Assembly (NCBI GenBank): GCA_022616075.1
Contig: JAKEFK010000024.1
Span: forward strand, 572 to 64,571
Origin: a bacterium
GTDB lineage: Bacteria > Acidobacteriota > HRBIN11 > JAKEFK01
Direction: 5' to 3'
DNA: 64,000 bases
Under the pieces are notes generated by a model. It worked only from the letters and a program-made list of their open reading frames with translations, was not told the origin of the DNA and made no database searches. Shown one piece after another: positions 43,179 to 64,000 of this stretch (the stretch's first letter is position 1; every line of letters begins with the position of its first letter). The translations under genes were made by a program, and so were the position numbers.

Positions 43179-44501
43179 ATGGCACTGGAGCTCAATAGAA
43201 CGCGAACGGCACCGATTACTGTTGTCCTGGTGGGTAGTGATAGGGAGGTTTCTCAAATGGAGCTGGCGAATACGAAAGTGAAAGCATTCCGCTTTACCTC
43301 CGGAGAGGAAGCCTTTGATTGGTGCCGTCGGAATGAGGAAACCTTTTCCCTGGTTATCGTTGGTCCACATACAGATGATATGACCGGAAAGAAACTTTCC
43401 AGGCTGATCAAGCAAGAGGTGGTTATGGATGTAATTCTGATTCTTGAATCGAATGACTCAGAGGAGACCGTAAAAAATCACACTGCCGCAGACATTTTGC
43501 TCTACCCAACAGAGTCGGTTATCGATCTTGTGCGGCAGTACATTGCCAATTACGCCTCTTACGGAAAAGGCGTTCCTGATGCTGAAATCATAATGCCGGA
43601 ATTCGAACAAATTTCGGGCTTGAGTAAAGGCGTCACCCTTAAGGGCTATACTCTTATCAACCTGATTGAATCCGGCGGGATGTCGGCTGTCTGGGAAGCG
43701 TATTCGAACATCAACAAGTCCGAGCGCGTCGCTATTAAGTTTCTTCATTCAACCTGGCTGCAGAGTGCAAGGATTTCGGAGTCGTTTAACCATGAAGCGA
43801 TCCTTCTTTCCAAATTTTCTCACAAGAACATTCTGAAGCTTTTGCTGTCCGGTTGCTGGAATTCTTATCAGTACATGATTCTGCCTTACGTTGATGGAAT
43901 GAGAGGTGACGATCTCTTTTCAGTGATTGAGCCTGCTCGCAGCGAAGTTGTGAGTTTCATTGCCTGTGAGCTCTTCAGCACGCTGGAGTACATTCACAAC
44001 TTTGCTGATGATGGATTGCAGCTGAATGTTCAGCATCGAGACGTGTGTCCGGATAATCTTCTCTTTTCGAAATCCGGATCGATGTTTCTAATCGACTTTG
44101 GAAGCGCGCGATCCGGACTGTTTGAGACCGGCTGCGACATTCGTCCTGTTCGTGAAAGCATCGCAGGGCATCATTTATATAATGCTCCCGAACAACTGGA
44201 CCGTTTTCATCCTCAACACAGTCGGCAATCTGATGTCTATTCTGCAGGTTTGACTTTGTACCGGCTCTTCGTACCCAGGCTCTATGCGGATGAGAATCAA
44301 ATATACGCTGACGTAGGGTCGCGAGCGCTTTATCCCCTTCCGGACAACGTTCCGGAGTATTACTGTGACTTTTTTCAAAAAACCCTCGCGCGGGCGCCCG
44401 AAAATCGCCCGACAGCAGCACACGCGCTCGCTTATATCAAGCGTCACTTTCCGCTTTTACAACAAGACGAGTTTAAAAATTACCTTCGTAATTTTATTTG
44501 A
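43179..44501 (+). CDS. Receiver-like N-domain fused to a Ser/Thr protein-kinase domain with an atypical catalytic loop (HRDVCPDN)
   Basis: Gly-loop/VAIK, HRD, DFG (IDFGSA) and APE (YNAPEQ) motifs. The catalytic-loop Lys is replaced by Cys. Confidence 0.7.
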   Translation: MALELNRTRTAPITVVLVGSDREVSQMELANTKVKAFRFTSGEEAFDWCRRNEETFSLVIVGPHTDDMTGKKLSRLIKQEVVMDVILILESNDSEETVKNHTAADILLYPTESVIDLVRQYIANYASYGKGVPDAEIIMPEFEQISGLSKGVTLKGYTLINLIESGGMSAVWEAYSNINKSERVAIKFLHSTWLQSARISESFNHEAILLSKFSHKNILKLLLSGCWNSYQYMILPYVDGMRGDDLFSVIEPARSEVVSFIACELFSTLEYIHNFADDGLQLNVQHRDVCPDNLLFSKSGSMFLIDFGSARSGLFETGCDIRPVRESIAGHHLYNAPEQLDRFHPQHSRQSDVYSAGLTLYRLFVPRLYADENQIYADVGSRALYPLPDNVPEYYCDFFQKTLARAPENRPTAAHALAYIKRHFPLLQQDEFKNYLRNFI

Positions 44502-46156
44502 GCTGTGAGGTTAGGATGATTGACTACAAAAAGAAGCAGATCGTTCTGGACGTTCTTGAACATCTTCGGGAATTTATCCGGTCTGATAATTTGGCTTTCG
44601 AAATTCATAAAGTCATCAAAGACGTTATGAGTGCTGACAACGTCACGGTGATTTTTGGTGACGATCAAGTTGATCAGTACTGGATCACGAGCCAGCCGGC
44701 AGAGGAACGCGGTGTGAGCTACACAGTTGTGAACAAGGCCAAAGCTGATGACAACGATACAGGCTACTGGTTTGCGGAAGTCGCGGAGCGGAGTAAAACG
44801 AAAAGCCAGATGGACTACGACATGAAATATTGCCTGGCTGCGGTTGTAGACACAGCGTCTGTTGTAGATCGCAGGCTCGGAACAATCTATTGTGATGTGC
44901 GCCGGGGACCGCATCGATACACCGAGCAGGATGCGAGATTCTTGAAGTATCTTGCTGACCACCTTGCTGTGTACTTGGAGTTGGTGATCGCCCGAAGAAA
45001 TTCCGCAAAACTCAGAGACCGGAATGATAAGTTTATGGAACTGCAGAAGCAGAATCCTGCAACTGTTCTAGAACGTCTCGTTGGATTTTCTCCGAAGATT
45101 GTGGAGATCAAAAACGACATCATGACTGTGATTTCATGTGTTGAGGAACCGGTCTTGATTCAGGGTGAAACCGGCACGGGCAAAGGTGTCGTTGCAAAGA
45201 TTATCCACGACCTTTCCTCACGCAGCTCAAAGGAGTTTGTAACAGTTGAGTGCAGCAATCTTCAGAAGGAGCTTGCGTATTCCGAACTCTGGGGGCATAA
45301 GAAAGGCGCTTATTCAGATGCGCGCGAAGGCCGTACCGGCCTTGTGCGAACGGCGCATGGCGGAACGCTGTTTCTTGATGAGATCGGGGACCTGCCTCTG
45401 ATCCAACAGGGAATGCTTCTACGAGTTTTACAGGAGGGTAAGGTTCGACCTTTAGGCGAGGATAGAGAAGAAGTGGTAAATTTCCGGCTGATTTGCGCCA
45501 CAAACCGCAATCTCCACAAGATGGTTCAGGAAGGTAAGTTTCGGGAAGACCTTTACTGGCGCATCAACAAGTTCCCAATTTATCTGCCGCCGCTTCGCGA
45601 TAGAAAAGAAGACATTTCGGTTCTTGCTGACCATTTCGCAAAAACGAAGTCCATTTCTCCAGACGCAATATGCTTGCTCAAAGCACTTCCTCTTACCGGA
45701 AACGTCCGTGAGCTGCAGGACCTCATTGGAATGGCGAAAGCATATGCGAAGTCCATGGAGATTACTCTTAAGGACGTGGAACTTGTTCTTGAAAGATGCA
45801 GTGCGAACTGTGTTGCATATCCCGACAACACTTCTTCTACTGAACCCGTGGATGGAAAAGTGCTCTTAAGCAGAGTCTTTTTGCACCAGTTGAGTTTTCA
45901 AGAACTTCAAGAGATGTGGAACAAGAAACGGATCACCAAAGAACAACTCAGGGCTCTTTTTGATGTTCTTTTTACTGTTACGCGTGGAGCGGTTGCTCCC
46001 ATCGGCCGTAGGCTGGGTATTACTGAGCAGAAGGTTATGGATCAGTTCATCGATTGGGTCGGCTACCTGCGCAAGCAGCGAATCCTGCCGCTGAAGGACG
46101 AGTTTGACTTCCCGGCCCGGATTTCACCTGAATCCCTCGATCAAGCTTTTGTCTAG
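44498..46156 (+). CDS. Sigma54-dependent enhancer-binding protein (GAF-like N-domain, AAA+ core, C-terminal HTH) with variant GAFTGA loop (GAYSDA)
   Basis: Walker A GETGTGKG, SELWGHKKGAYSDA, Walker B LFLDEIGDL, R-finger region, C-terminal HTH. Confidence 0.8.
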   Translation: MSCEVRMIDYKKKQIVLDVLEHLREFIRSDNLAFEIHKVIKDVMSADNVTVIFGDDQVDQYWITSQPAEERGVSYTVVNKAKADDNDTGYWFAEVAERSKTKSQMDYDMKYCLAAVVDTASVVDRRLGTIYCDVRRGPHRYTEQDARFLKYLADHLAVYLELVIARRNSAKLRDRNDKFMELQKQNPATVLERLVGFSPKIVEIKNDIMTVISCVEEPVLIQGETGTGKGVVAKIIHDLSSRSSKEFVTVECSNLQKELAYSELWGHKKGAYSDAREGRTGLVRTAHGGTLFLDEIGDLPLIQQGMLLRVLQEGKVRPLGEDREEVVNFRLICATNRNLHKMVQEGKFREDLYWRINKFPIYLPPLRDRKEDISVLADHFAKTKSISPDAICLLKALPLTGNVRELQDLIGMAKAYAKSMEITLKDVELVLERCSANCVAYPDNTSSTEPVDGKVLLSRVFLHQLSFQELQEMWNKKRITKEQLRALFDVLFTVTRGAVAPIGRRLGITEQKVMDQFIDWVGYLRKQRILPLKDEFDFPARISPESLDQAFV

Positions 46157-46268
46157 AACACTTCTTGAACGATCCTTGAGCGGGTAGAAGAGAAAGACCC
46201 AACCGAAAGGGATTGGATTCGAAAATAAGGTCAGCAATTTGGCGAGCAGAGCGAACTCAATGCTTAAT

Positions 46269-46724
46269 TTATAAACGCTGCCACCATTGTTTCACTATCT
46301 GCCAAAATCCGGTTTTTCCTTTGTCGGTTTCCGACATCACTCGGGTATCTTCTGCTGCACCCTCGATTGCCATCTCACCGATGTTGAAGTATCTCTCTTT
46401 CTCAGAGCGGTCGTATGCTCTTCCGGCCTCAATCTCGTTTCTAGACCATCGAGCAGCCCAATGAACATTGTTATTCGTTATCCAATAATGAGACTGGCAC
46501 TCGAAGCTCCAGTTCCCGATCGAAGGATGAAGCGAAATCGTCTTGCCATCAAAGATGAGCTTCCAATCCGTTGGTCCCAGCGGAGTAACGACTTCTTTTC
46601 CACAGCCACAGCAGCACTTGTGGACTACGGTTGCATACCTAATCGATATGTAAAGGGTCTCCTTCTCGATATGATCGGGAATAGATTCGACGAATTCATG
46701 TTTAAGAACTCTCTTCCTTCTCAT
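46269..46724 (-). CDS. Prokaryotic E2-like (UBC-fold) protein
   Basis: HPS-x7-C spacing (HPSIGNWSFEC) like the eukaryotic E2 HPN...C signature. Its stop/start overlaps the E1 gene. Confidence 0.5.
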   Translation of the reverse strand: MRRKRVLKHEFVESIPDHIEKETLYISIRYATVVHKCCCGCGKEVVTPLGPTDWKLIFDGKTISLHPSIGNWSFECQSHYWITNNNVHWAARWSRNEIEAGRAYDRSEKERYFNIGEMAIEGAAEDTRVMSETDKGKTGFWQIVKQWWQRL

Positions 46725-47911
46725 TAACGCATGTCTTCATTTGTGAGCAAGTCGCAATCGATCGTATACGTGCTGTGATGTTCACGCTTGAGGTCGCGAT
46801 AAAAGCCAAACAGTTTCTTCCATTTGATGACAGCTAAGGCGGCGTTGAGAGCGTTGAGATCAGCAATCTGGATATTCGTATCATATTGATTGTCTCTACC
46901 ACCATCCGAAAAAGAGATCCTGTTACGAACATGGTCACGCTGTTTCGGCGTGCTGGTCGTGATCCTTAGAATGCCGCCCAATGAATCATCAGTCACATTA
47001 ACACCCATACCGACGTCGATGAACGGAACGCCGCAGTATTCGAGCATTTCCACGATCATCTTTTTTGCCGAGCTGCGATCCAGGCAAAGAAAACCGAAGT
47101 CCATGTTTTGCAGTTCCCCGACATTCCCTGCATCTACATAAACCGCATGATCAATGACACCCCGGTGCATTTTCGAGTACAGACTCTTCAGGTAGACAAC
47201 CTTAGGTGGCTTCGTCATCAGGTCGTCAATCGAAGGAGCGCCCGGGGATCTGAAAGCGTTGTGCTGCAAAAAAGCATCTCCGTCAAAAAGGTGGATTTCC
47301 TTTACAGGGGTCTTAGCAACAAGATCCAGCACGTAACAGCCGGTTCCGCCCAACCCCACGATTGCAATCTTTAGTGGTTCTAGCTTTTTTGCGACGAAGT
47401 CAATTTCGGCCCTGCTTGAAGCGGTATCGATGTAATTGAATACAGTTTCCTCATTCTCTTTATCTGGTTCGATAACGGGAAACGTTTTTGACGTAATCAA
47501 TGGATCGATCAACTGAGCCGGGCCGGATATGATTGCGACATATGTGGTCACTTTAACGTAATAATCCTCATACAATCCGCTCGGCTTGGGCTTCGCTGAG
47601 AACCTGTGTTGGACCACGACGCCCTCAGCGAGGGTGCGGTTTTCACATGAATTTCTGATCTGCTCTATTTCCTTTCCATCCGCATTGCAGGGGTAATCGC
47701 CGACAAAATGAGCAACATGATCCTCAGGACGTGAGGTTATATCGCCCGCCAGGGTTAATGTTGAGACCAGAATTCCGAGCTTTATTTCTTTGCGGGAGTT
47801 TACATACGGAACATCCTTCACGAGTAAATAGCCGGAACGGATTTGGAGATCATAACCCTCGTCGCGCAGCTTTTTCAGGTCAGCGCTATGACTTATCAGT
47901 TTGCGTGACAT
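46724..47911 (-). CDS. ThiF/MoeB-family E1-like activating enzyme with a roughly 180-aa N-terminal extension
   Basis: Rossmann motif IAIVGLGGTGCYVLDLV...HLFDGDAF typical of E1/ThiF. The N-terminal domain is of unknown function. Confidence 0.7.
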   Translation of the reverse strand: MSRKLISHSADLKKLRDEGYDLQIRSGYLLVKDVPYVNSRKEIKLGILVSTLTLAGDITSRPEDHVAHFVGDYPCNADGKEIEQIRNSCENRTLAEGVVVQHRFSAKPKPSGLYEDYYVKVTTYVAIISGPAQLIDPLITSKTFPVIEPDKENEETVFNYIDTASSRAEIDFVAKKLEPLKIAIVGLGGTGCYVLDLVAKTPVKEIHLFDGDAFLQHNAFRSPGAPSIDDLMTKPPKVVYLKSLYSKMHRGVIDHAVYVDAGNVGELQNMDFGFLCLDRSSAKKMIVEMLEYCGVPFIDVGMGVNVTDDSLGGILRITTSTPKQRDHVRNRISFSDGGRDNQYDTNIQIADLNALNAALAVIKWKKLFGFYRDLKREHHSTYTIDCDLLTNEDMR

Positions 47912-48368
47912 TGAAGATCATTCCATCCTTGATCTTAACTTTTCCTCCAGGCATCAACGTACCTTCTAGGTTCGGATGAGGGCCGCCCTCATATGTGATT
48001 GTGAACAAGATGTTCTCTCCGGTCGGCACAGGGTCGAACGCAAGGGCGACGATTTCATTGAACGACAACTCCTTCTTCGTTACGACTTTCTTTCGGCCAT
48101 TTACGATGATCGTGAATTCCTTGCCCTTGGCGGAACCACTGTGGAAATGCTCGCCATCTTTCAGATGGATTATCTCTTGGTCGTTTGGAATAGGCTGATC
48201 TTCTCTATTGCCGGTAACCTCGCGATATAGCACGAGTCCTGGTTCTATATCGCCGAGCTTATATATGGCCTCGCCTATGGTGGGATTTGGCGATACGTGC
48301 AGCTTCTGATCAATATGAATCCTCACCTCATCGTGTTTCTGGTCCGCTTTCGTTTTTTGTTCAGACAT
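47886..48368 (-). CDS. Multiubiquitin-family (tandem beta-grasp) Ubl protein
   Basis: 160 aa with two beta-grasp-like halves. Operon context with E1 and E2. The C-terminus is ...TQTDKS with no GG. Confidence 0.5.
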   Translation of the reverse strand: MSEQKTKADQKHDEVRIHIDQKLHVSPNPTIGEAIYKLGDIEPGLVLYREVTGNREDQPIPNDQEIIHLKDGEHFHSGSAKGKEFTIIVNGRKKVVTKKELSFNEIVALAFDPVPTGENILFTITYEGGPHPNLEGTLMPGGKVKIKDGMIFNVTQTDKS

Positions 48369-48438
48369 TAAATCATCCTCCTTAAATGTGTTTGGTAACT
48401 CTTCCTTTGCGGCACTGCTTCGCTAATTTCGATTGGCA

Positions 48439-48894
48439 TCAGTTGTCCTGCTGGCATAACCGCGCCCGCAAGCGTGAAATGAGTGTTCTTGCGCGGCCCA
48501 CCTTTGTTTTGGTCAATTCGTGGTAGGAAAATCCGCGCGCAATAGAAACAAGAAGTCGCCATTCCGCCACGCTCATGTCGCCCCGGAGCTCTGCCAGACG
48601 AAGGCGAGCCAGCATCCGATGTTCTGCATGTGGTTCGAGCTGCTCTTGAAGATATTTACGCTTGAGCCGCGCATGGTTCCGTTCAACCCAGGAGCCGGTG
48701 GAAATGGCCGTGTTGAATTTGCGCTGAAATTCTTCTTGATCTGCGGGAACGCCGGTGGATTCAACGGTCGCCAGCAAGAAGGCGAGACCGTTTTCAATAC
48801 CCCAAGTTCGGTGAGTTACTTTGCCGCAACGCGCGGCCTGTGATTGGTGCTCCGCATAAACGCACCAAGGAAAAGGTAAGTCTTCCATGTTCAT
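48439..48894 (-). CDS. Hypothetical protein with C-terminal sigma70-region-4/LuxR-like HTH
   Basis: ...MSVAEWRLLVSIARGFSYHELTKTKVGRARTLISRLRARL. First gene of the Ubl/E1/E2 transcription unit. Confidence 0.4.
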   Translation of the reverse strand: MNMEDLPFPWCVYAEHQSQAARCGKVTHRTWGIENGLAFLLATVESTGVPADQEEFQRKFNTAISTGSWVERNHARLKRKYLQEQLEPHAEHRMLARLRLAELRGDMSVAEWRLLVSIARGFSYHELTKTKVGRARTLISRLRARLCQQDN

Positions 48895-49086
48895 CTCCTT
48901 TTGTGGGGATCGCTATTGTCCCCGCGATGACTGAGTGCAGATGAACCTTTTCATTGGCTTGCTGAACCGCGAACCGGAACGCTGTGCCCGATTCGAGGCC
49001 TATACCAGCCGCCTAGCAAGGCCGTTCTGCCCCACAATTATTGTAGTCCAAAATCGCTTAATGTTACAGATGGTTAGAAAAAAAGA

Positions 49087-50988
49087 TCAGAAAGTTGTCA
49101 ATTGCGTCGCATAAGTGTCTGACCACTCCTTTCGGAGAAGGTCGAACATCTGCTTCCGCTCAGGATCCTGCTGAGCCATCAAACTCTGCGCCCGAGCTAG
49201 CGACAGGAGCATCAACTGGAGTGCTACTAAAGTCTGCTGCGCACCATTGAATGTCTGCGGCTCGGAGGCATTATTTTCCGCACTTGTAGGAGCACCCTCG
49301 GCGACTCGCGCGTCCAGTGTCAGCGCAGCATTGCTCAACGGCTCGTAAAGCCGTCCGTAAAATGGATGTGCCGTGTTGATCGTCAGAATGATTTTGCCGA
49401 ATCGTTGATCTACATGATAAAACGGCCAGTACTCGTCATGCTTATAATGTATGATGTGCTTCGAGCTCTTAACGCGCTCAAAGGCTTCCTCATCAGTCTC
49501 CATTTCCCGCTTGAGCATCATCGCGAGAGTACGGAGGTTCTCATCGAGCTGCCGCTGTTCCTCCGGAGTGTTCGGCGTAGGCTCGATCAAGGCCTTTGCC
49601 TGGCGAAGCTCGGCCTCATCAGCCTTCATTTCACCGGCGCTTGGCTTGCTTCCATGGCGTATTACCGTCTGCTCGCTTTGATATTTCTTGATCTGCTCGC
49701 GAAGTGCAGTTATTTCTCCAGATAGCGCTTCAGAGATGTCCTGCAGCACATAATCCTTGGGACGAATGCCCTGCTTATTCGCGGCTACTCCGAATGCCTC
49801 GTCCAACTCGCCTGGGAAATCGATCTGGATGCGGAGCCAGTTCGCGTCACTGTGACGCTTCATGATCTCTGGAATCGTTCCGATGAAAACCTCGCGGTCG
49901 TTCCGCAAAACAGAGACCGTATTGTCGTCGTATAGGTGCAGGTCGTTTTTGCGAACCTTGAGAGGAAGCGCTCCCCAATCTGAGATCGGCAGGGCGTAGA
50001 GGCGAATAGTGACGGGTGCACGCTCGACGTTTTCCGATTCCTGACTGTGGTTTTCGCTCCGCTTCACTTGGATGACCTTAGAAAAAACTACCCGGCTTTC
50101 TTTCACTCTGATCTCAGGAATTCTGGTGTGCCGAGCAGAGACCATGGAGTATGTCGGATCGAAAGGCTCTACCAGCCGATTATTCACGTAGAGTTTTGTG
50201 CCTTTTGCAAGCGCGCGGCGATAGACACGGGACATCTCTTTGATCGCATGCTCACACAGCGTCCGAGCTTTCGCAAAAGTGAGCCGGTCGCACAACGGCA
50301 AATAAACGATCGTACCTGACTTCCCGAGCCTATCCTTGAGTTCGTCCACATCTTGCGCAAAAAGCGACTGCTCGTTTCGATCGGGAAAAGAGAGTGCTTT
50401 CGTCAAAATATCAGAGACCTCACTCGGCAGCAGGTCCATAAGAGTAGGGTCTGGCAGCTCGATGAGGTTTGATTTTTCCTTTCCGATGGCTTCGACATCG
50501 AGGGTCATATTGTAATAGGCTCCCGATTCCTGCCATGAATAAATGTCAAGAATCGGACTCATGCTGAGCGCCGCAGTTTTCATGCCCATGCCGAAGCGCC
50601 CGATGCCGGAACGGTTGTCAAAGACCATGGAACCGCCGAACGATGTTGCGAATTTTAGGACATTGGGTGCCATCCCGTTGCCGTTATCGAGTACCAAAAT
50701 ATTTGTCTGGTAAGCGCCTTTCTTACCAGTCTGGCTAAAATAGACGCGAACTTCGGTGGCGCCCCACTGGATAGCGTTGTCAATATGCTCGCACAACGCA
50801 GACGTTGTGCTGTTATAACCGACATCGCGCAAAGATCTGATGAGTGTTTGCCCGAAAAAGAGCGGTACGGTCGCCTTTTCCTTGATGATCCGATTCAGTA
50901 CAGTCTTCCCGCCGCGCGGGGCATTCTCGCCCCAAACTGGGGTTTGAGCATCAGCTTCCGACGAGGTGGGAGTATTTTGTTCTAGCAT
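49087..50988 (-). CDS. GHKL/MORC-like ATPase (HATPase_c_3 Bergerat fold) with long coiled-coil C-terminus
   Basis: EHIDNAIQWGATEVRVYF, VLDNGNGMA and GRFGMGMK motifs. The start at 50988 has an AGGAGA RBS. Confidence 0.7.
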   Translation of the reverse strand: MLEQNTPTSSEADAQTPVWGENAPRGGKTVLNRIIKEKATVPLFFGQTLIRSLRDVGYNSTTSALCEHIDNAIQWGATEVRVYFSQTGKKGAYQTNILVLDNGNGMAPNVLKFATSFGGSMVFDNRSGIGRFGMGMKTAALSMSPILDIYSWQESGAYYNMTLDVEAIGKEKSNLIELPDPTLMDLLPSEVSDILTKALSFPDRNEQSLFAQDVDELKDRLGKSGTIVYLPLCDRLTFAKARTLCEHAIKEMSRVYRRALAKGTKLYVNNRLVEPFDPTYSMVSARHTRIPEIRVKESRVVFSKVIQVKRSENHSQESENVERAPVTIRLYALPISDWGALPLKVRKNDLHLYDDNTVSVLRNDREVFIGTIPEIMKRHSDANWLRIQIDFPGELDEAFGVAANKQGIRPKDYVLQDISEALSGEITALREQIKKYQSEQTVIRHGSKPSAGEMKADEAELRQAKALIEPTPNTPEEQRQLDENLRTLAMMLKREMETDEEAFERVKSSKHIIHYKHDEYWPFYHVDQRFGKIILTINTAHPFYGRLYEPLSNAALTLDARVAEGAPTSAENNASEPQTFNGAQQTLVALQLMLLSLARAQSLMAQQDPERKQMFDLLRKEWSDTYATQLTTF

Positions 50989-51369
50989 TTCGATTCTCCT
51001 GTTTTGTGACCACCGGCTGTTCGGGGTCAGAGTCGAGAGCATAATGGCTCTCATTAAATAAGTAGTTGAAAACGCCCAAAAGTTACATTGTGGCCAGAAA
51101 TCGCGTGGAATTTTAGAAGTTTGATCGTTATTGTAAGAATGAGTGACAACGGTTTTCTGCGCGACTGATTCAATCTTTCGATAACGTCTCACGCATTTTG
51201 CTGCAGCCCGAGCGCATTTATGATTTCCGTTGCAATTCTTGTTTTCTCTTTGCTGTTGGAATCATATCCCAGACGAAAGTCTCGGAAATCATTATCTCCG
51301 GAATAAGGACCATAGACTCCACCGTTTGGGGAAGGTACTTCGTAACACAGCCCATTCTTCGAAGCTCCT

Positions 51370-52473
51370 TTACTTGTTTTGTCTAAACATCAATATGTTC
51401 GAATCTGCAGTGGCTTTCGATCTTGATTGTGATTTTTCTCTATAGCCCTCAATAATGGTTTTAAGCATGCCTTCGCCCAATTGCGAATGTGAAGACAGCT
51501 GGGCGAGATCAATAGGAACCCCGTATATAGCCTCGATCATCTGTCGAATTAGCCGTGGTTTTTCTGCCGGTATGTCTAGGCTTTCAGGTTCTTTCATTCT
51601 CCACCCATTAGCGGATAACTGCTCAAATAAGTAACGATATTGTCGCTCCGAAATAGCTCGCACATCAAAGGCTCGCCTGATTAAGGCTTGTATGGAAACG
51701 CCCCATTTTGGTTTTAGCTGTGCGATCCTAGAAAGAGTAAGTGGCGATACAAAATCTCGAACGATGCCTTTCTGAGGCATCAAGAACTCTGCTGCGAACT
51801 GGTTGGCACTCTTCTCCTGTTCAACGCCTAGTCTTTTCTTGTGCCCCAAAATAAGATGGCCTAATTCGTGAGCAATGGTTAGCCTCATCCTGTCAGCAGG
51901 TCTGTTCTTGGAAATCGCAATGAGAGGCACTTGGTCTCCAGGAGTATCATGAACGATTTTGCACGAAAATGCGTCACGTCTTGGAAGCTCGACTGGCAGA
52001 GCCAAAATCAAAACTCCAATTCGTTCTAAAGTATCTATCAAATTCACAATGGGACCATCTTCGGTGAGAATACAATGCATTCTAGTTTCAATGGCTGCTT
52101 GCTGAGGATCACTCGATGGGGATTTTGGGAGAGAGGGGGGGACTGGGCTAATCTTGGCGGCGAGCAGTGTGAAAAGCTCGTAGAGTACTTCTGCATACCG
52201 CTTAGCCTCTACCAATTCCCGTCTTGTCATCGTGGCGTGTGCCCTAAATACAACGGCGCTTGAGTCGAACTCAATCAAAGGATCGTTGGAAAAAAAGGAA
52301 AGAGGGAAGCGGGTGTATCTTGAAATATCAGATATCAAATCGGCGGAAGGCTCTTTGAATCCTCCTTCAATCTGAGCTATCGCGCTCTGAGAAACTTCAA
52401 TTTTGTCAGCCAATTGTTTTTGAGTCCACCCATGAAGTTCCCTTGCTTGTCGTATGCGTTTTCCGCTATACAT
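51370..52473 (-). CDS. Fused XRE-HTH plus ImmA/IrrE-family zinc metallopeptidase (CapH/CapP-like or DdrO/IrrE-like damage-responsive regulator)
   Basis: N-terminal HTH (IRQARELHGWTQKQLADKIEVSQSAIAQIEGG) and an HEXXH motif (HELGHLILGH). Confidence 0.8.
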   Translation of the reverse strand: MYSGKRIRQARELHGWTQKQLADKIEVSQSAIAQIEGGFKEPSADLISDISRYTRFPLSFFSNDPLIEFDSSAVVFRAHATMTRRELVEAKRYAEVLYELFTLLAAKISPVPPSLPKSPSSDPQQAAIETRMHCILTEDGPIVNLIDTLERIGVLILALPVELPRRDAFSCKIVHDTPGDQVPLIAISKNRPADRMRLTIAHELGHLILGHKKRLGVEQEKSANQFAAEFLMPQKGIVRDFVSPLTLSRIAQLKPKWGVSIQALIRRAFDVRAISERQYRYLFEQLSANGWRMKEPESLDIPAEKPRLIRQMIEAIYGVPIDLAQLSSHSQLGEGMLKTIIEGYREKSQSRSKATADSNILMFRQNK

Positions 52474-52479
52474 TTGTTT

Positions 52480-53061
52480 TCATCCATTTTCTTTCTTTTT
52501 GTCCTCTTGTTTCGGTTCGATAGGAAGTTCTCCCGGATCATTCGGAGGTGGAGGCGCGGAAGAAGAAAGACCGGGATTTTTTATTTCCATTATCCAATGA
52601 GCTTCAACGGATTCTTCGTCAGCGTATTTTGGACAAACCAACCAAAGCCGAGAAAGGTTGTGAAGTTTATCAGAATTCCAGATGATGATGAGTTTTAGCG
52701 GGTCAACACCGGTAAAGAGAAGCTGTTGGCAATACGCTTGTCTAGGGTCGGACTTTGACGCCGGCGGATTTTGATCATTTGCTTTCCAAATTCTGATACC
52801 GTAATTTGGAAGTTGGAGCCACAAACCAGCGTTATTGATATGCTCCATCTTGAGATCTGCAAATTCTTTCTTCTGTAAATAGTTCTTGGCATAAGCTCGA
52901 ACATTGCCAGCCCAAATGGTACCATCAAATTCGAGATCGTCAGCATCAACTATTTCTTTTGATTTCATCGCGCCCCATTCCAAGGCGTAATAAATCTCGC
53001 GCAGGAGCCAGTCCAATTCTTGATAAGTTTCTTCAGGATTAGGAAAGTGCGGTAGGTTCAT
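52480..53061 (-). CDS. Hypothetical protein (about 193 aa) upstream of the HTH-ImmA regulator and probably co-transcribed with it
   Basis: Start MNLPHFPN with a GAGGT RBS. No recognised domain. Pro-rich and acidic tail. Confidence 0.4.
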   Translation of the reverse strand: MNLPHFPNPEETYQELDWLLREIYYALEWGAMKSKEIVDADDLEFDGTIWAGNVRAYAKNYLQKKEFADLKMEHINNAGLWLQLPNYGIRIWKANDQNPPASKSDPRQAYCQQLLFTGVDPLKLIIIWNSDKLHNLSRLWLVCPKYADEESVEAHWIMEIKNPGLSSSAPPPPNDPGELPIEPKQEDKKKENG

Positions 53062-53130
53062 CTTCTTATTATTACCTCGTATCGGTAATAAAATTACCAG
53101 CAAATTACCATTCTGTCAATGGCTCCCCGC

Positions 53131-53190
53131 ATTGCTGCACTTTATTCCGGATTGCTCGACTTTATTCTGCGTTGCCGCGCGGTTTATTCC
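53131..53190. repeat. Three tandem 20-bp direct repeats (ATTGCTGCACTTTATTCCGG / ATTGCTCGACTTTATTCTGC / GTTGCCGCGCGGTTTATTCC)
   Basis: Exact 20-bp periodicity, in the 400-bp non-coding gap between brxL and the 52480..53061 operon. Confidence 0.7.
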
Positions 53191-53499
53191 AATCTACACT
53201 CGTGGGGTCTGTTGCAAAGGATGTGAAACTCTGCATCATCAAGAGTGTTGGAGTCGTAATGGCAACAAGTGCTCCATCTTTGCATGTGATTGAAGAGAAG
53301 TTCCGGAGAAGAAATAGGCATGGGCCAGATGCGAATAATCAGTGGATTGTTGAAAGACGGGCAGGATTCCAGATCATCTCGGCAATCATCATATAAAGCT
53401 TCTGCCGAGCCATCTAATTCGGCTTTCTTGAATTCGTGATACGCCTGGAACGGTCAGGCTCTTGTCTCTCACAAATTTCAAGAATCCGGGGTTGCGTGT

Positions 53500-55548
53500 T
53501 TACGTCAAGCCAAGCGATTTAAGCGCTGCCGTCATTGGATCGCTGTAAAAGATCGGGTCGACGCGTTCCATGATGTCGGCCGGAACGGCAAGGAAATCGC
53601 GCTTGTTCTCTATCGGAACCATTGCACGGCGAGCACCATTTTCCTTTCCTAATTGAAGGGCTTGGTCTAAGGAGCGCAAAGCCTTAATGTTCCCCTGAAT
53701 GCTCAGATCTCCAAGCACCATTAGCGCTGGCAAAGTCGAAGATTTCTTCAATGCAGAATATATCGAGACAACAAGCGCAACGCCCGTCTCTCCGGTGACG
53801 TGATTGTGCAATAAATCGATGACCTCGACATGGAAGTCAGTCGTATCCACTTGCTGAGCAATTCCCATATCCACCTTATGACCCTGTATGTAGGAGAACG
53901 CGCGACGAAGCGACTCGCGCATCCCGGGATCGATTGCACCTGACAAACTCAGCTTTCCAGTTCCAGATGAGCAACCGACCTCCAGTCGAAACAAACCAAC
54001 TTTTCCTTGATCATCAACGGAGGCCGTGTAAAGCGACCCGGGTGCAAGCGGATCCGCAGAAATCAGATTCCGCCCGCCTTCCTCCGGAACACCGACGTAA
54101 CGCTCCTCACCTGTCTCCTTTTCTATATAGGAGAAAGATGTGTTGAAGAATTCAAATGAACCCATCTTCTTCAACTGCTCTTTGACCCTTCGCCTTCCTT
54201 CCAGTGCGAGCTCCAATATTTCTTGGAGTTCGTCTTTCGTCATCTCGCCATGGGGATAAATTAGTTTGGCCAGCCCTGCAACGGTTTTTCGTGATGCTTT
54301 AACATCACGAGATTTCAATTGCGATCCAAGAGAAAAATGCGTATCAATAATCTCGGTGAAATTGCGGCGGCGGAGCTCACGAAGCGCCTCAGCAAGATAG
54401 TCCACGACGAATCCATACCCTGAAGTGAACATGCTGGTCTGCATTTTCGGAATCTCCCACCCAGGAACATAAAAATGAATGCGGTCCAGAAAGGCGGTGT
54501 CTTCCCGGATCACATCCGGCAAAGGAGCAAATAAATGCGACGACCGGACCATCACATCAACCGCCTGGTGGATATTTCCAAAGAATGCAACCGAAGCAGT
54601 GCCGCTCAATTGCTCTTTTCCTCGCGCAAAACTTCCTGATTCGCAATAGGTCTTCAGCGTGGTAATCACTTCTCGCGGCATCTTCTGCAGGTCGGCCACT
54701 TCATCAAATGCGACCGCATCCCACAAGCCAACCAATCCAATCTTGTTCGTGCTCATGTTGTAGAAAAGATTGGCAACGGTTGTAGGACCAGTTAGAAGAA
54801 TTGCGTACGGAGAGAGTTGCTGGTACGCGAACGATTTTCCGGTTTCGCGGGGTCCCAATTCAATCAGGTTATAATTTTGCTCGCATAATGGCACGAGCCG
54901 CATCAGATAAAGGAGTTTCAACCGCCGGCTCATCCCGATGGGTTCTAGCCCGATTGTGCGAACTAATAAATCGACCCACTCTTCTGATGTGAAACCTTCT
55001 CGCCCGTTAAAATATTCCTGGATATCGAATGTAGCCACCTGAATCGGCTTCAGATCATCAATCCAAAACGGACTCCGGCGACCCTGAACCTGATCATCAT
55101 ATTCATGGCGTAATTCGACCTCGGACCAAACGCCATCCACGAGAAGACGATCGAAATTCCGCACGAACCGGTCCGGGACATGAATGAAGCGGTTCCCGAA
55201 GTTTACGATTTCCGCCCAGTACTTATCATCTTCAGCCAGATACCGAACTTTGACTTTATCAATGAGGATGTGTCGTCCTTTTTCTTTGACAACGGACTGT
55301 GCCTTATTCGCTTCATCGGGGCGCACGAAATTTTCCGCAAGAGTCGAGTTGACGATTTTTAATCCTGCTTCGACTGCGACAGGATCATCGGTTGCACAGT
55401 ACTTGCCTAACAAGTATTCCAGAACATAAACCGGCACTGTTGATCCGAACTTGAGCTTGCGCACCAATTCTTTTCGGACGACCTTACCGGCGAAAGTTTT
55501 GCTGACCTTGGCGTCCAGCGCGTCCGGAACCGACTGGTTAGAAAGCAA
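53500..55548 (-). CDS. brxL: BREX Lon-like protease BrxL
   Basis: 682 aa. The N-terminus (...KVVRKELVRKLKFGSTVPVYVLEYLLGKYC) and a C-terminal Lon protease-like domain are typical of BrxL. Confidence 0.8.
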   Translation of the reverse strand: MLSNQSVPDALDAKVSKTFAGKVVRKELVRKLKFGSTVPVYVLEYLLGKYCATDDPVAVEAGLKIVNSTLAENFVRPDEANKAQSVVKEKGRHILIDKVKVRYLAEDDKYWAEIVNFGNRFIHVPDRFVRNFDRLLVDGVWSEVELRHEYDDQVQGRRSPFWIDDLKPIQVATFDIQEYFNGREGFTSEEWVDLLVRTIGLEPIGMSRRLKLLYLMRLVPLCEQNYNLIELGPRETGKSFAYQQLSPYAILLTGPTTVANLFYNMSTNKIGLVGLWDAVAFDEVADLQKMPREVITTLKTYCESGSFARGKEQLSGTASVAFFGNIHQAVDVMVRSSHLFAPLPDVIREDTAFLDRIHFYVPGWEIPKMQTSMFTSGYGFVVDYLAEALRELRRRNFTEIIDTHFSLGSQLKSRDVKASRKTVAGLAKLIYPHGEMTKDELQEILELALEGRRRVKEQLKKMGSFEFFNTSFSYIEKETGEERYVGVPEEGGRNLISADPLAPGSLYTASVDDQGKVGLFRLEVGCSSGTGKLSLSGAIDPGMRESLRRAFSYIQGHKVDMGIAQQVDTTDFHVEVIDLLHNHVTGETGVALVVSIYSALKKSSTLPALMVLGDLSIQGNIKALRSLDQALQLGKENGARRAMVPIENKRDFLAVPADIMERVDPIFYSDPMTAALKSLGLT

Positions 55549-62705: not shown

Positions 62706-64000
62706 ATAATTTTTTTGCCCTGTTCTAGTAGATTGAACAAATATTCCTGCAGACGTTCGATTGAGGCTTTCACGTTTTCGATTTCACTCTTCTCCGGATC
62801 TTTCGGGCCTGTAAAGAAACTCGCCAATTGCACTCGAGCAATATCCTCTTCACTTCCTCCTGCTGCAGCCACAATCTCCTGAATGCGTCTCTTTGCTGTA
62901 TTCACCAATCCAGGCAGAGCATCGAGATCTGTATTTAGGACAGCAAGCGTAGCGCCAGTCGTTCGATCTGCTTCTGCGAATGGAGGAAGATCAATCTCTT
63001 CAATAGCCCTTCTTCTCAAAGGCTCCAAGACTGTCTCCGCTTCAACATCTTTGAGTTGCAAGAATTCAGGCATTCCCTGTATTTCCTGAATTGCTTTGTC
63101 ATAAGACTCAAATCGTCGTTTGTGCAGGCCTTCATAGACTTCACGGTACACAGCCGCGATGGAATTGGCGAGGCGCCCGGCATCCTTGAACACGCTCGTT
63201 ATGTCAGGCGATTCCAGGATTGCCTTCAGCTCTGAAACAGCGTCTTGCACGCGGCCCTCCTCTCCTGCCAATCGAAGCGCGGGTGGAAGGGAATCAGTCG
63301 CTCTCCGATACATCCGGATCTTTTCAAGATTTTCGTCGTTCAAAAACTTCTCAATTTGATTGGCGGTGTCGCGCAACGATTGAATTGTTTTCCCCTGGCC
63401 TGAGAGCAATCTGACGCAATCGTCCGAAGCACCCGTGGTTACTGTCTCGAGAGTCTCTCTCCATTCTTCCAACAATCCTGTAAATGGAAGACGGTGCGCG
63501 CGGGCAGTCGCAAGAGCCGGCAACAACTTTTCCTTTTCCACGTCAGCTAATTTCCGGAACGACTCCGCAATCGCCCCTTCCTCGACATCCACTTCCTGTC
63601 CAATCATTGCCTCTAAGTTTCGTACTGCTGTTGTGAGCGTCTTCAAATCGATCGTTTCTCGCGGGGCAAAAGCAGCATTTCGAAAAGCAGGAGTATTGGT
63701 GAATGGAAGTCTGGCGAGAGGCTCCTGATAATTCCGGTAGGTGCGCCCCTGATGCGTTACATCAATGCTGCCTGACCGGAATAATGTGGCAAGGACTAGA
63801 CGGATAACATCCTGGTCCCACCCATATCCGAAATCGCCGAAGTGTTCTGCAATCTGTTTACCGGTTATTTTATTGCCAAACTGATGCTGAGCCTTCAAAT
63901 AATCCAGAATTTCGCGAGCAGATTCGGCATTAGAGTTAAGCACATAACGGTTCCCTTCAGTGGTAACAAGGTTCAGGCCTTCACCACCATGAAAAACAGC
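62696..64000 (-). CDS. brxC: BREX BrxC/PglY, C-terminal portion; continues past the window edge
   Basis: The open frame runs to position 64000 without a stop. Position is immediately upstream of pglX in the canonical type-1 order. Confidence 0.55.
   Translation of the reverse strand, partial: AVFHGGEGLNLVTTEGNRYVLNSNAESAREILDYLKAQHQFGNKITGKQIAEHFGDFGYGWDQDVIRLVLATLFRSGSIDVTHQGRTYRNYQEPLARLPFTNTPAFRNAAFAPRETIDLKTLTTAVRNLEAMIGQEVDVEEGAIAESFRKLADVEKEKLLPALATARAHRLPFTGLLEEWRETLETVTTGASDDCVRLLSGQGKTIQSLRDTANQIEKFLNDENLEKIRMYRRATDSLPPALRLAGEEGRVQDAVSELKAILESPDITSVFKDAGRLANSIAAVYREVYEGLHKRRFESYDKAIQEIQGMPEFLQLKDVEAETVLEPLRRRAIEEIDLPPFAEADRTTGATLAVLNTDLDALPGLVNTAKRRIQEIVAAAGGSEEDIARVQLASFFTGPKDPEKSEIENVKASIERLQEYLFNLLEQGKKIIWE

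Follow-up and report, generated by a model that had tools for sequence, protein, structure and literature searches.

The minus-strand genes between a BREX type-1 cluster and a ubiquitin-like (Ubl) operon on the acidobacterial contig JAKEFK010000024.1 probably form two independent two-gene modules, chance neighbours in a defence island that consists of BREX, RmrTA, ATPase/p151 and the Ubl operon. The whole stretch of 64,000 nucleotides that was analyzed is referred to as the window. Module 1 appears to be a divergent toxin-antitoxin pair of the RosmerTA type, and module 2 combines a MORC-like GHKL ATPase with a small protein, p151, that carries a predicted C-terminal helix-turn-helix (HTH) domain. 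The original prediction had joined three of these four genes, encoding proteins of 193, 367 and 633 amino acids (aa), into a single damage-inducible module. These three open reading frames (ORFs) on the minus strand are real and of the sizes given, and an independent gene caller applied to the source contig returned the same genes; the defence-island setting, with BREX upstream and the Ubl operon downstream, was also recognized correctly. The p151 gene lies outside the coordinates of that prediction. The gene row is organized as follows:

53500-55548, minus strand: brxL, which together with the other BREX type-1 genes pglX and pglZ forms the upstream end of the row
396 bp, in the minus-strand row: spacer between brxL and rmrT
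53119-51370: module 1, the putative RosmerTA-type pair
52480-53061, minus strand: rmrT-like gene, 193 aa from ATG
51370-52473, minus strand: rmrA-like gene, 367 aa
381 bp: spacer between rmrA and the ATPase gene
51087-48439: module 2, the ATPase/p151 cassette
49087-50988, minus strand: MORC-like GHKL ATPase gene, 633 aa
48889-49086, minus strand: ATPase-p151 spacer of 198 bp
48439-48888, minus strand: p151 gene, 149 aa
46269-48368, minus strand: Multi_ubiq / DUF6791-ThiF (E1-like) / DUF6527 operon (Ubl operon), directly downstream of p151

RmrA contains an HTH_3 domain (3.4e-13) and a Peptidase_M78 domain (2.9e-16, both Pfam) fused in one protein, with an intact HEXXH motif (HELGH) at residue 202, in agreement with the earlier description of a fused XRE-HTH/M78 protein of the ImmA/IrrE type. 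The comparison with CapH/CapP and the view of the 193-aa protein as unknown have to be replaced, since RosmerTA fits far better: RmrA matches the PADLOC RmrA model at 1e-67 with residues 2-350 covered, and the capP and capH models at only 2.8e-17 and 2.8e-9. The nearest NCBIfam model is the spr1629 repressor/antitoxin (9e-43, below the cutoff of that model). The rmrA start codon follows the rmrT stop codon by 6 nt. RmrT itself matched no Pfam or NCBIfam family and is recognized by the PADLOC RmrT model PDLC03939 (1e-9). A full HMMER search identified 265 cluster representatives of the RmrT family at E≤1e-3, which are at most 44% identical, and PDLC03939 was matched by 47 of 54 aligned family members (best 2.7e-13). 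We fetched the contigs of five independent distant RmrT relatives (loci L084, L085, L086/87, L088 and L089). In all five, an RmrT-like gene is followed by an RmrA-like gene after a gap of ∼0-20 nt or with a short overlap, and the RmrA proteins are 39-57% identical to that of the window. A search for RmrA in metagenomes returned two fragments only.

The RosmerTA defence system is defined by a toxin-antitoxin pair in which a Zn-peptidase is the antitoxin and the toxins are diverse and without known function; its antitoxin gene could not be deleted, presumably due to toxicity (10.1101/2022.05.11.491447). A second member has been validated by toxicity, neutralization and phage assays (PMC10440598). 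On every sequence-level criterion, the two genes of the window fall into this system, and we therefore propose that they encode a divergent RosmerTA-type pair of a putative toxin and a putative antitoxin/autorepressor. This assignment is based on the family matches, the gene order, the HEXXH motif, and the promoter geometry and –10 palindrome common to the distant relatives. By analogy to published RosmerTA and ImmA/ImmR-type systems, RmrT would be a growth-arresting toxin that is neutralized by RmrA.

The regions upstream of rmrT from the window and the five relatives were aligned by eye. The elements found in the window are:

53119-53114, minus strand: –35 region TTGACA of the inferred rmrTA promoter
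53096-53091, minus strand: –10 region TAATTT, separated from the –35 region by a 17-nt spacer, with TGG just upstream
53098-53084, minus strand: palindrome GGTAATTTTATTACC over the –10 region, a candidate operator
53109-53104 and 53076-53071, minus strand: extra GGTAAT half-sites
53131-53190, minus strand: imperfect 20-bp tandem repeats, 12-71 nt upstream of the –35 region

The same geometry, TTGAC(A/T/G) followed after 17 nt by a –10 region (TAATTT, TAGTTT or TATAAT), is present in four of the five relatives (L084, L085, L086/87 and L088). Three of these four carry GGTAATTTTATTACC or a close variant over a TAATTT-type –10 region; L088 has a TATAAT –10 region and a partial half-site only. A second GGTAAT(N3)ATTAC(C) is often found ahead of the start codon. 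A site of this kind, palindromic and placed over the –10 region, would suit a dimeric XRE repressor. By analogy to ImmA/ImmR-type systems, a dimer of the RmrA XRE HTH bound to GGTAATTTTATTACC would repress the operon, so that RmrA may act as an autorepressor of rmrTA, and phage infection could upset the RmrT/RmrA balance and thereby release the toxin. The palindrome occurs once in the window and was found neither near the ATPase gene nor near the Ubl operon; there is therefore no sign of RmrA control at these two places, and the earlier suggestion of a regulatory switch for the Ubl operon is not borne out. Toward the 5′ end of the BREX cluster, positions 63863-63877 (plus strand) carry a copy of the palindrome with two mismatches, GGTTATTTTATTGCC, which is within chance expectation (0.86 matches expected).

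The original prediction had regarded three exact 20-bp repeats as the operator. An array beyond chance does exist at 53131-53190, with two units that are 16/20 identical and a degenerate third one. Tandem Repeats Finder (TRF) reports 2.5 copies with a period of 20, 79% matches and a score of 63, the sole array scoring ≥50 in the 64-kb window. On the minus strand, unit U3 (ccGGAATAAAGTGCAGCAAT, 53150-53131) agrees with U2 (gcAGAATAAAGTCGAGCAAT, 53170-53151) at 16 of 20 positions; in U1 (GGAATAAAccgcgcgGCAAC, 53190-53171), the GAATAAA part is shifted by 2 bp. An 18-mer of the repeat, allowing up to three mismatches, recurs in the window at this array only (0.05 expected). The five distant relatives, however, show no counterpart of the repeats upstream of rmrT, and the palindrome over the –10 region is probably the conserved candidate operator instead. 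We regard the repeats as locus-specific and at most as auxiliary low-affinity sites or bent, UP-like DNA. That they serve as functional auxiliary sites for RmrA or another factor and modulate the rmrTA promoter is conceivable, if doubtful. They are positioned immediately upstream of the –35 region, their period corresponds to about two helical turns, the 64-kb window has no second tandem array of this kind, and each unit begins with GGAATAAA or AGAATAAA, resembling the operator half-site plus spacer (GGTAAT-AAA). Against such a role, the units are imperfect and lack a second half-site, the motif appears nowhere else in the window, the promoters of the rmrTA relatives do without it, and a neutral local duplication is an equally possible origin.

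The ATPase of module 2 was described earlier as a Bergerat-fold, MORC-like protein with its own ribosome-binding site, and both statements hold. It contains HATPase_c_3 (1.2e-18, Pfam), and its gene is preceded by the Shine-Dalgarno (SD) sequence AGGAG at 51000-50996. In an alignment of 34 sequences, E66, N70, D100, G102, G104, G127-G134 and T225 (plus one in full-length numbering) are invariant or nearly so, and these columns appear to fit the ExxxN, DxGxG and GxxGxG GHKL motifs (I-IV) as well as the GT pair. A comparison of the family profile with PDB returned MORC2 (4e-5) and MORC3/4, followed by Topo VI-B. Foldseek with the ATPase model aligned the MORC4/MORC3 ATPase modules over ∼440 columns (8.8e-5, TM score 0.25-0.37), with the caveat of a poor model (pLDDT, the predicted local confidence, of 61); a transducer domain of the S5 fold may follow the GHKL domain. 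A grouping with housekeeping proteins was not observed: the MutL model TIGR00585 gave 18.4 bits against a cutoff of 180, and GyrB was found by Foldseek at E=0.1 only. The long coiled-coil tail proposed before is retained in part. In the AlphaFold2 (AF2) model, at low confidence, long helices span residues ∼411-490, and a small β/α C-terminal domain follows them. Besides GHKL domains, no Pfam family matched the ATPase even at E≤10, including nucleases and HEF_HK. A protein search found about 1300 relatives, and GTDB species representatives contributed 170 loci, with hosts in Terriglobia/Bryobacterales (Acidobacteriota), many Alphaproteobacteria, Planctomycetota, Verrucomicrobiota and Myxococcota.

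To define the neighborhood of this family, 80 related loci were fetched, of which 61 were informative, i.e., contained a complete 3′ end of the ATPase gene and enough flanking sequence. In 59 of these 61 loci, a search with the family profile detected a p151 homologue behind the ATPase gene and in the same orientation. De novo clustering of the neighboring ORFs returned the p151 homologues as the single widely shared neighbor; all others vary. Near the ATPase genes of the 80 loci, RmrA-like genes are present in two, and neither RmrT-like genes nor BREX in any. The ATPase thus neither stands alone, as had been stated, nor is it partnered with RmrTA, because p151 accompanies it in 59/61 loci and RmrTA genes are scarce in the set of 80. 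The GC content also separates the genes, with 0.43 for rmrT and 0.46 for rmrA compared to 0.52 for the ATPase gene and 0.55 for p151 (window mean 0.49), a step that fits separate acquisition of the two modules. RefSeq labels the pair ‘ATP-binding protein’ and ‘hypothetical protein’. Taken together, ATPase and p151 apparently represent a widespread pairing and a self-contained two-gene cassette, an undescribed variant of the paraMORC theme. In one close relative (L003, 9917-18337), the p151 homologue is located ∼6 kb downstream of the ATPase gene rather than ∼200 nt, which suggests an insertion between the two genes.

The p151 protein is all-helical. Its last ∼60 residues resemble a σ70 region-4/LuxR-type HTH: Sigma70_r4_2 matches 8 of 27 members (best 1e-6), and the family profile matches the C-terminus of VraR (6e-4), region 4 of SigC (8e-4), CnrH (3e-3) and also SigE in PDB. 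The N-terminal half carries the conserved motif DLPxPW..YA..Q....SWG.E..L, and the N-terminal 75 aa have no detectable relative. A region-4-type HTH is therefore supported in p151, and σ region 2 was not detected.

Close relatives of the ATPase share no upstream context with the window, yet ∼100 nt before the start codon are conserved. In ∼60 loci across phyla, this leader starts with (c)TGTAAC and, after 13 nt, C(A/G)TCTCCT(a/t)A; then come the hairpins P2 and P3, the latter with an AACAGC loop, ACA(G/A)A, GGAG and ATG. The leader and spacer elements of the window are:

50989-51087, minus strand: conserved ATPase leader
51087-51082, minus strand: TGTAAC, promoter-like, 13 nt from CAACTACT
51068-51061, minus strand: CAACTACT, second half of the promoter-like motif
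51052-51035, minus strand: hairpin P2
51028-51008, minus strand: hairpin P3 with the loop AACAGC, followed by ACAAAAC and the SD sequence
49068-49063, minus strand: second TGTAAC, 17 nt from TACAAT
49045-49040, minus strand: TACAAT in the ATPase-p151 spacer
48995-48970, minus strand: long hairpin with the loop CACAGCG in the ATPase-p151 spacer
48923-48905, minus strand: last spacer hairpin, followed by ACAAAA and the SD sequence at 48900-48894

The GT.AC and C..TC.T positions of the leader are ≥90% conserved in 65 sequences. For P3, a MAFFT alignment anchored on the SD sequence only revealed compensatory changes in all seven base pairs (e.g., AU 20, GC 14, GU 4; CG 19, UA 12), with 78% of the cells paired. 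The covariation of 0.381 compares with ≤0.10 when the partner strand is slid and was reached by none of 500 shuffles. P2 was scored per sequence against shuffles because bulges and variable loops blur the MAFFT columns (helix 1 only 38% paired). A gapless stem of at least 6 bp is present in 40 of 61 sequences compared to 16 (maximum 26) in shuffles, and it is formed by many different stem sequences. RNAalifold returned no structure from the first MAFFT leader alignment, which was too gappy. A covariance model of P3, searched over 1.28 Mb, matched ATPase leaders, including eight loci outside the seed, and in eight loci also a site just upstream of p151. All matches before the two genes are on the sense strand, and about six weak matches were found elsewhere. 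Rfam gave no match at E≤1 in the window (46000-54000) or at E≤10 in L012 (9800-10020).

The ATPase-p151 spacers follow a related pattern: a GC hairpin past the ATPase stop codon, and a final hairpin followed by ACAGA and the SD sequence. Of 37 spacers, 34 contain the CACAGCG-like loop motif [GA]CA[CT]A[GA][CT]G, which is carried by a long hairpin. About a fifth of the loci (8/37 by pattern count), the window among them, have a second TGTAAC...CT(A/C)C. Located before both genes, TGTAAC...CTCC looks like a dedicated promoter or operator, and p151 would be the obvious candidate for its reader. Covariation in stems whose loops and flanks are conserved speaks for an RNA element more than for a DNA palindrome bound by a protein, and we consider the leaders a candidate new cis-regulatory RNA motif. 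Most single-sequence folds also contain a pairing of CUCC with the SD sequence (the ‘P1’ helix). Both sides of P1 are invariant, which places it beyond a covariation test, and if TGTAAC...CTCC is a promoter, CUCC would not be transcribed at all. In the window, both copies of the motif (51061-51068 and 49040-49049, minus strand) read ACTAC(T/A) instead of the usual TCTCCT. With this change, the p151 copy takes the form TGTAAC-17-TACAAT of a σ70-like promoter. In L002, L004 and L005, ACTAC(T/A) is found in the p151 copy only, and the ATPase copy reads ACTCCT.

The genes around the cassette are mixed and include recombinases, insertion sequence (IS) elements, ParB, methyltransferases, PD-T4-6-type kinases, DUF499 and capP-like peptidases. 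The gene that begins directly at the p151 stop codon, or only a few nucleotides from it, varies between lineages and encodes a defence-type protein (DUF4917, DUF499 or ResIII) or a protein of no known family; several of these genes overlap the stop codon. We take DUF4917 to be SIR2-like. A Multi_ubiq/E1/DUF6527 trio follows ATPase/p151 in the window and in three independent loci, in which the ATPases are 53-84% and the E1 proteins 37-67% identical. In the window, p151 and Multi_ubiq are separated by 70 nt with a strong SD sequence. The downstream genes are located as follows:

L005 14846-16927, L044 15057-17111 and L008/L072 12659-14386: Ubl trio
L018 7029-8045 (the one checked by Pfam) and L021 6552-7562: DUF4917 gene after p151
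Roseomonas plasmid pOT10-1: DUF4917 gene after p151
L040 8088-11207: DUF499 gene after p151
L002 12592-13254: ResIII gene after p151
L090 8444-9460: gene right after p151

These arrangements suggest that the position after p151 is a variable effector slot. Phage records contained no close match to the cassette, and plasmid records a single one among 72,556. Based on this context and on the known prokaryotic MORC relatives, the cassette may function in defence or another genetic conflict. The ATPase would act as an ATP-driven dimeric DNA clamp like MORC proteins, probably in such a conflict, and the HTH protein p151 would read the bipartite GTAAC...CTCCTAA-like motif before one or both genes and control their transcription. 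The ACAGC-loop hairpins beside each SD sequence could tune translation or mRNA stability. A bolder and less probable reading takes the cassette as a new, widespread and self-regulated conflict or defence device, in which a MORC-like clamp would be combined with a dedicated minimal σ4-type factor, an undescribed cis-regulatory RNA motif that gates translation of the two genes (a stem that covaries and has an ACAGC loop, and ACAGA beside the SD sequence) and, in some lineages, variable effectors (Ubl/E1, DUF4917, DUF499 or ResIII).

Several observations weigh against the interpretation developed here. The RmrT match is weak (1e-9) and its subfamily divergent, and a word-indexed search of 5.8 billion proteins with RmrT returned the query itself and no close relative. 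The –10 hexamer of rmrTA is weak, which explains why a generic promoter scan did not flag this promoter; in the region 48300-53600, the generic promoter/terminator scan found promoter-like sites no more often than by chance. For p151, the full-length fold search listed SigL, AlgU and WhiG at E values of 2-10, none of them significant, and the AF2 models are mediocre, with a pLDDT of 61 (ATPase) and 68. For the hairpins, 17 G.U cells face 11 A.C cells, which does not decide between the RNA and the DNA level, and the two strands have similar folding z-scores. Many neighbors of the cassette are plain metabolic or housekeeping genes. Finally, the gap from p151 to the Ubl operon contains no predicted terminator, and module 2 may therefore not be fully autonomous in the window.

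How do other explanations compare with two independent modules? If the three genes of the original prediction were one damage-inducible MORC-like module with the repeats as its operator, one would point to adjacent genes on the same strand, to the lack of a predicted minus-strand terminator between rmrA and the ATPase gene, and to the control of defence operons by ImmA/IrrE-type peptidases in CapH/CapP systems, whose models match RmrA at the values given above. The genes do not co-occur elsewhere, however, they are separated by 381 bp and differ in GC content, the ATPase gene has its own conserved leader, and the repeats are not conserved in the rmrTA relatives. The comparative data largely refute this explanation, and we consider it very improbable. 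Slightly more credible, and still quite unlikely, is the idea that RmrA is not an antitoxin but mainly a transcriptional switch, similar to CapH/CapP or ImmR/ImmA, that acts on a neighboring system, for instance the Ubl operon, BREX or the ATPase cassette. Known defence regulators share the domain pair of RmrA, the protein is placed between two defence systems, and the 5′ part of BREX contains an operator-like site with two mismatches (63863-63877). This site is within chance expectation and the palindrome itself occurs once in the window; moreover, an RmrT-like gene is always found immediately upstream of RmrA in the relatives examined, and the best family match, over the full length, is the antitoxin RmrA.

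Two further explanations concern the cassette alone. ATPase/p151 could serve as a conserved front end, sensory or regulatory, for a larger operon with a variable downstream effector, in the window the Ubl operon. The short gap of 70 nt with a strong SD sequence and no predicted terminator, the recurrence of the Ubl trio in L008/L072, L005 and L044 despite deep divergence, and the genes abutting the p151 stop codon (DUF4917 in L018, L021 and pOT10-1, DUF499 in L040, ResIII in L002) agree with this idea. Most loci, however, have no close same-strand gene behind p151, or a housekeeping or opposite-strand neighbor, and no single downstream family is widely recurrent, which makes it rather unlikely. 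A function outside of defence, such as chromosome organization, repair, gene silencing or a selfish addiction-like element, seems to us equally improbable. The many ordinary metabolic neighbors, the near absence from phages (no close matches) and rarity on plasmids (one in 72,556), and the lack of a PADLOC match beyond the generic GHKL domain speak for such a function. They are opposed by the patchy distribution across phyla in variable contexts, by the recombinases, IS elements, methyltransferases and defence genes that are often adjacent, and by the ties of prokaryotic MORC/paraMORC relatives to restriction-type systems (PMC2292703). Two independent modules thus remain the interpretation that we favor.

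Module 1 shares with known RosmerTA systems (Millman et al. 2022; Ernits et al. 2023) the two-gene operon with the toxin first, the defence-island setting, an antitoxin that consists of an XRE HTH fused to an M78/ImmA Zn-peptidase, and a toxin without recognizable domain. It differs by a toxin from a divergent subfamily, with ≤44% identity to anything found and a weak match to the PADLOC RmrT model. Unlike the tested toxin of Gordonia phage Kita, RmrT of the window has no predicted membrane segment by our reading of the sequence. An XRE HTH and an M78 peptidase, with a likely repressor on a palindromic operator over the promoter, are also found in CapH/CapP, ImmR/ImmA and DdrO/IrrE, whereas in RmrA these domains are fused and travel with a toxin gene instead of with the operon of another system. 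RmrA does not conform to a CapH/CapP-type regulator of a neighboring defence operon: the two functions are not encoded by separate genes, RmrA does not travel with the ATPase, Ubl or BREX genes, and the operator is found at its own promoter only.

For module 2, paraMORC-linked systems were used for comparison (PMC2292703; PMC8011034; PMC12137116). Like prokaryotic MORC/paraMORC ATPases (Iyer, Abhiman and Aravind 2008; PMC2292703), the ATPase combines HATPase_c_3 with residues that fit GHKL motifs, has MORC2/3/4 as its best solved relatives, and is patchily distributed, laterally mobile and often located near restriction or defence genes. In contrast to the described paraMORC systems, it has no conserved superfamily 2 (SF2) helicase, methylase or nuclease partner and only p151 as a conserved neighbor; its C-terminal half and the obligate σ4/LuxR HTH partner are unique to this family. 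HEF_HK/Response_reg_2 pairs (Bellieny-Rabelo et al. 2021, PMC8011034) are similar in that an HATPase_c_3 protein is linked to one small partner in more than 90% of cases, often in restriction-modification or defence neighborhoods. They were excluded here: PF19191 and PF19192 were undetected at E≤10, and the partner in the window is an HTH protein, not receiver-like. MzaB of the MZA system was rejected as well, with a match limited to residues ∼48-179 (NCBIfam, 57 bits against a cutoff of 850) and no MzaA/C/D/E neighbors, and so was GHKL-type Shedu (paraMORC3, VcSduA), since a C-terminal DUF4263 PD-(D/E)xK nuclease was not found by Pfam at E≤10. The ATPase is thus MORC-like by its sequence features and fits none of the described paraMORC-linked systems. 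The p151 partner is comparable to extracytoplasmic function (ECF) σ factors and LuxR-NarL HTH proteins in its last ∼60 residues, which match σ region 4 and the VraR C-terminal domain. The conserved upstream motif GTAAC...(C)TCCTAA bears a loose resemblance to ECF-type –35/–10 pairs, and canonical ECF promoters have a longer gap than the 13 nt from GTAAC to C(A/G)TC in the cassette leader.

In an automated annotation, the 193-aa gene would stay ‘hypothetical’, and RmrA could pass for a generic regulator. Recognition as RosmerTA adds a divergent toxin subfamily and, by comparison, the candidate operator GGTAATTTTATTACC to a system whose regulation is not mapped in the literature that we searched. 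The RmrTA half thus appears to be a new, divergent member of a known system, and the ATPase/p151 half with its leaders is the more interesting part. Separating the modules exposes p151 as the partner of the ATPase, in a two-gene cassette that occurs in no fewer than 170 species-level genomes of the host groups listed above. Prokaryotic MORC relatives are the presumed ancestors of eukaryotic gene-silencing MORCs, and to our knowledge a partner or a mode of regulation has been defined for very few of them. With p151 as its partner, a conserved promoter-like motif and a leader hairpin that covaries, the cassette is directly testable.

Two minor features flank these modules. A plus-strand ORF of 45 aa (53259-53396) in the brxL-rmrT spacer, divergent from rmrT and with a good SD sequence (GGAG-N6-ATG), is probably not a gene, as it has no homologue near the rmrT relatives and no coding-like codon bias. 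Just past the Ubl operon, the region 43179-46156 (plus strand) encodes a Ser/Thr protein kinase (PADLOC mad6, 3.7e-37, and PD-T4-6 models) followed by an RtcR/PspF-like σ54 activator (8.4e-81), a pair that may represent another defence module of the island.

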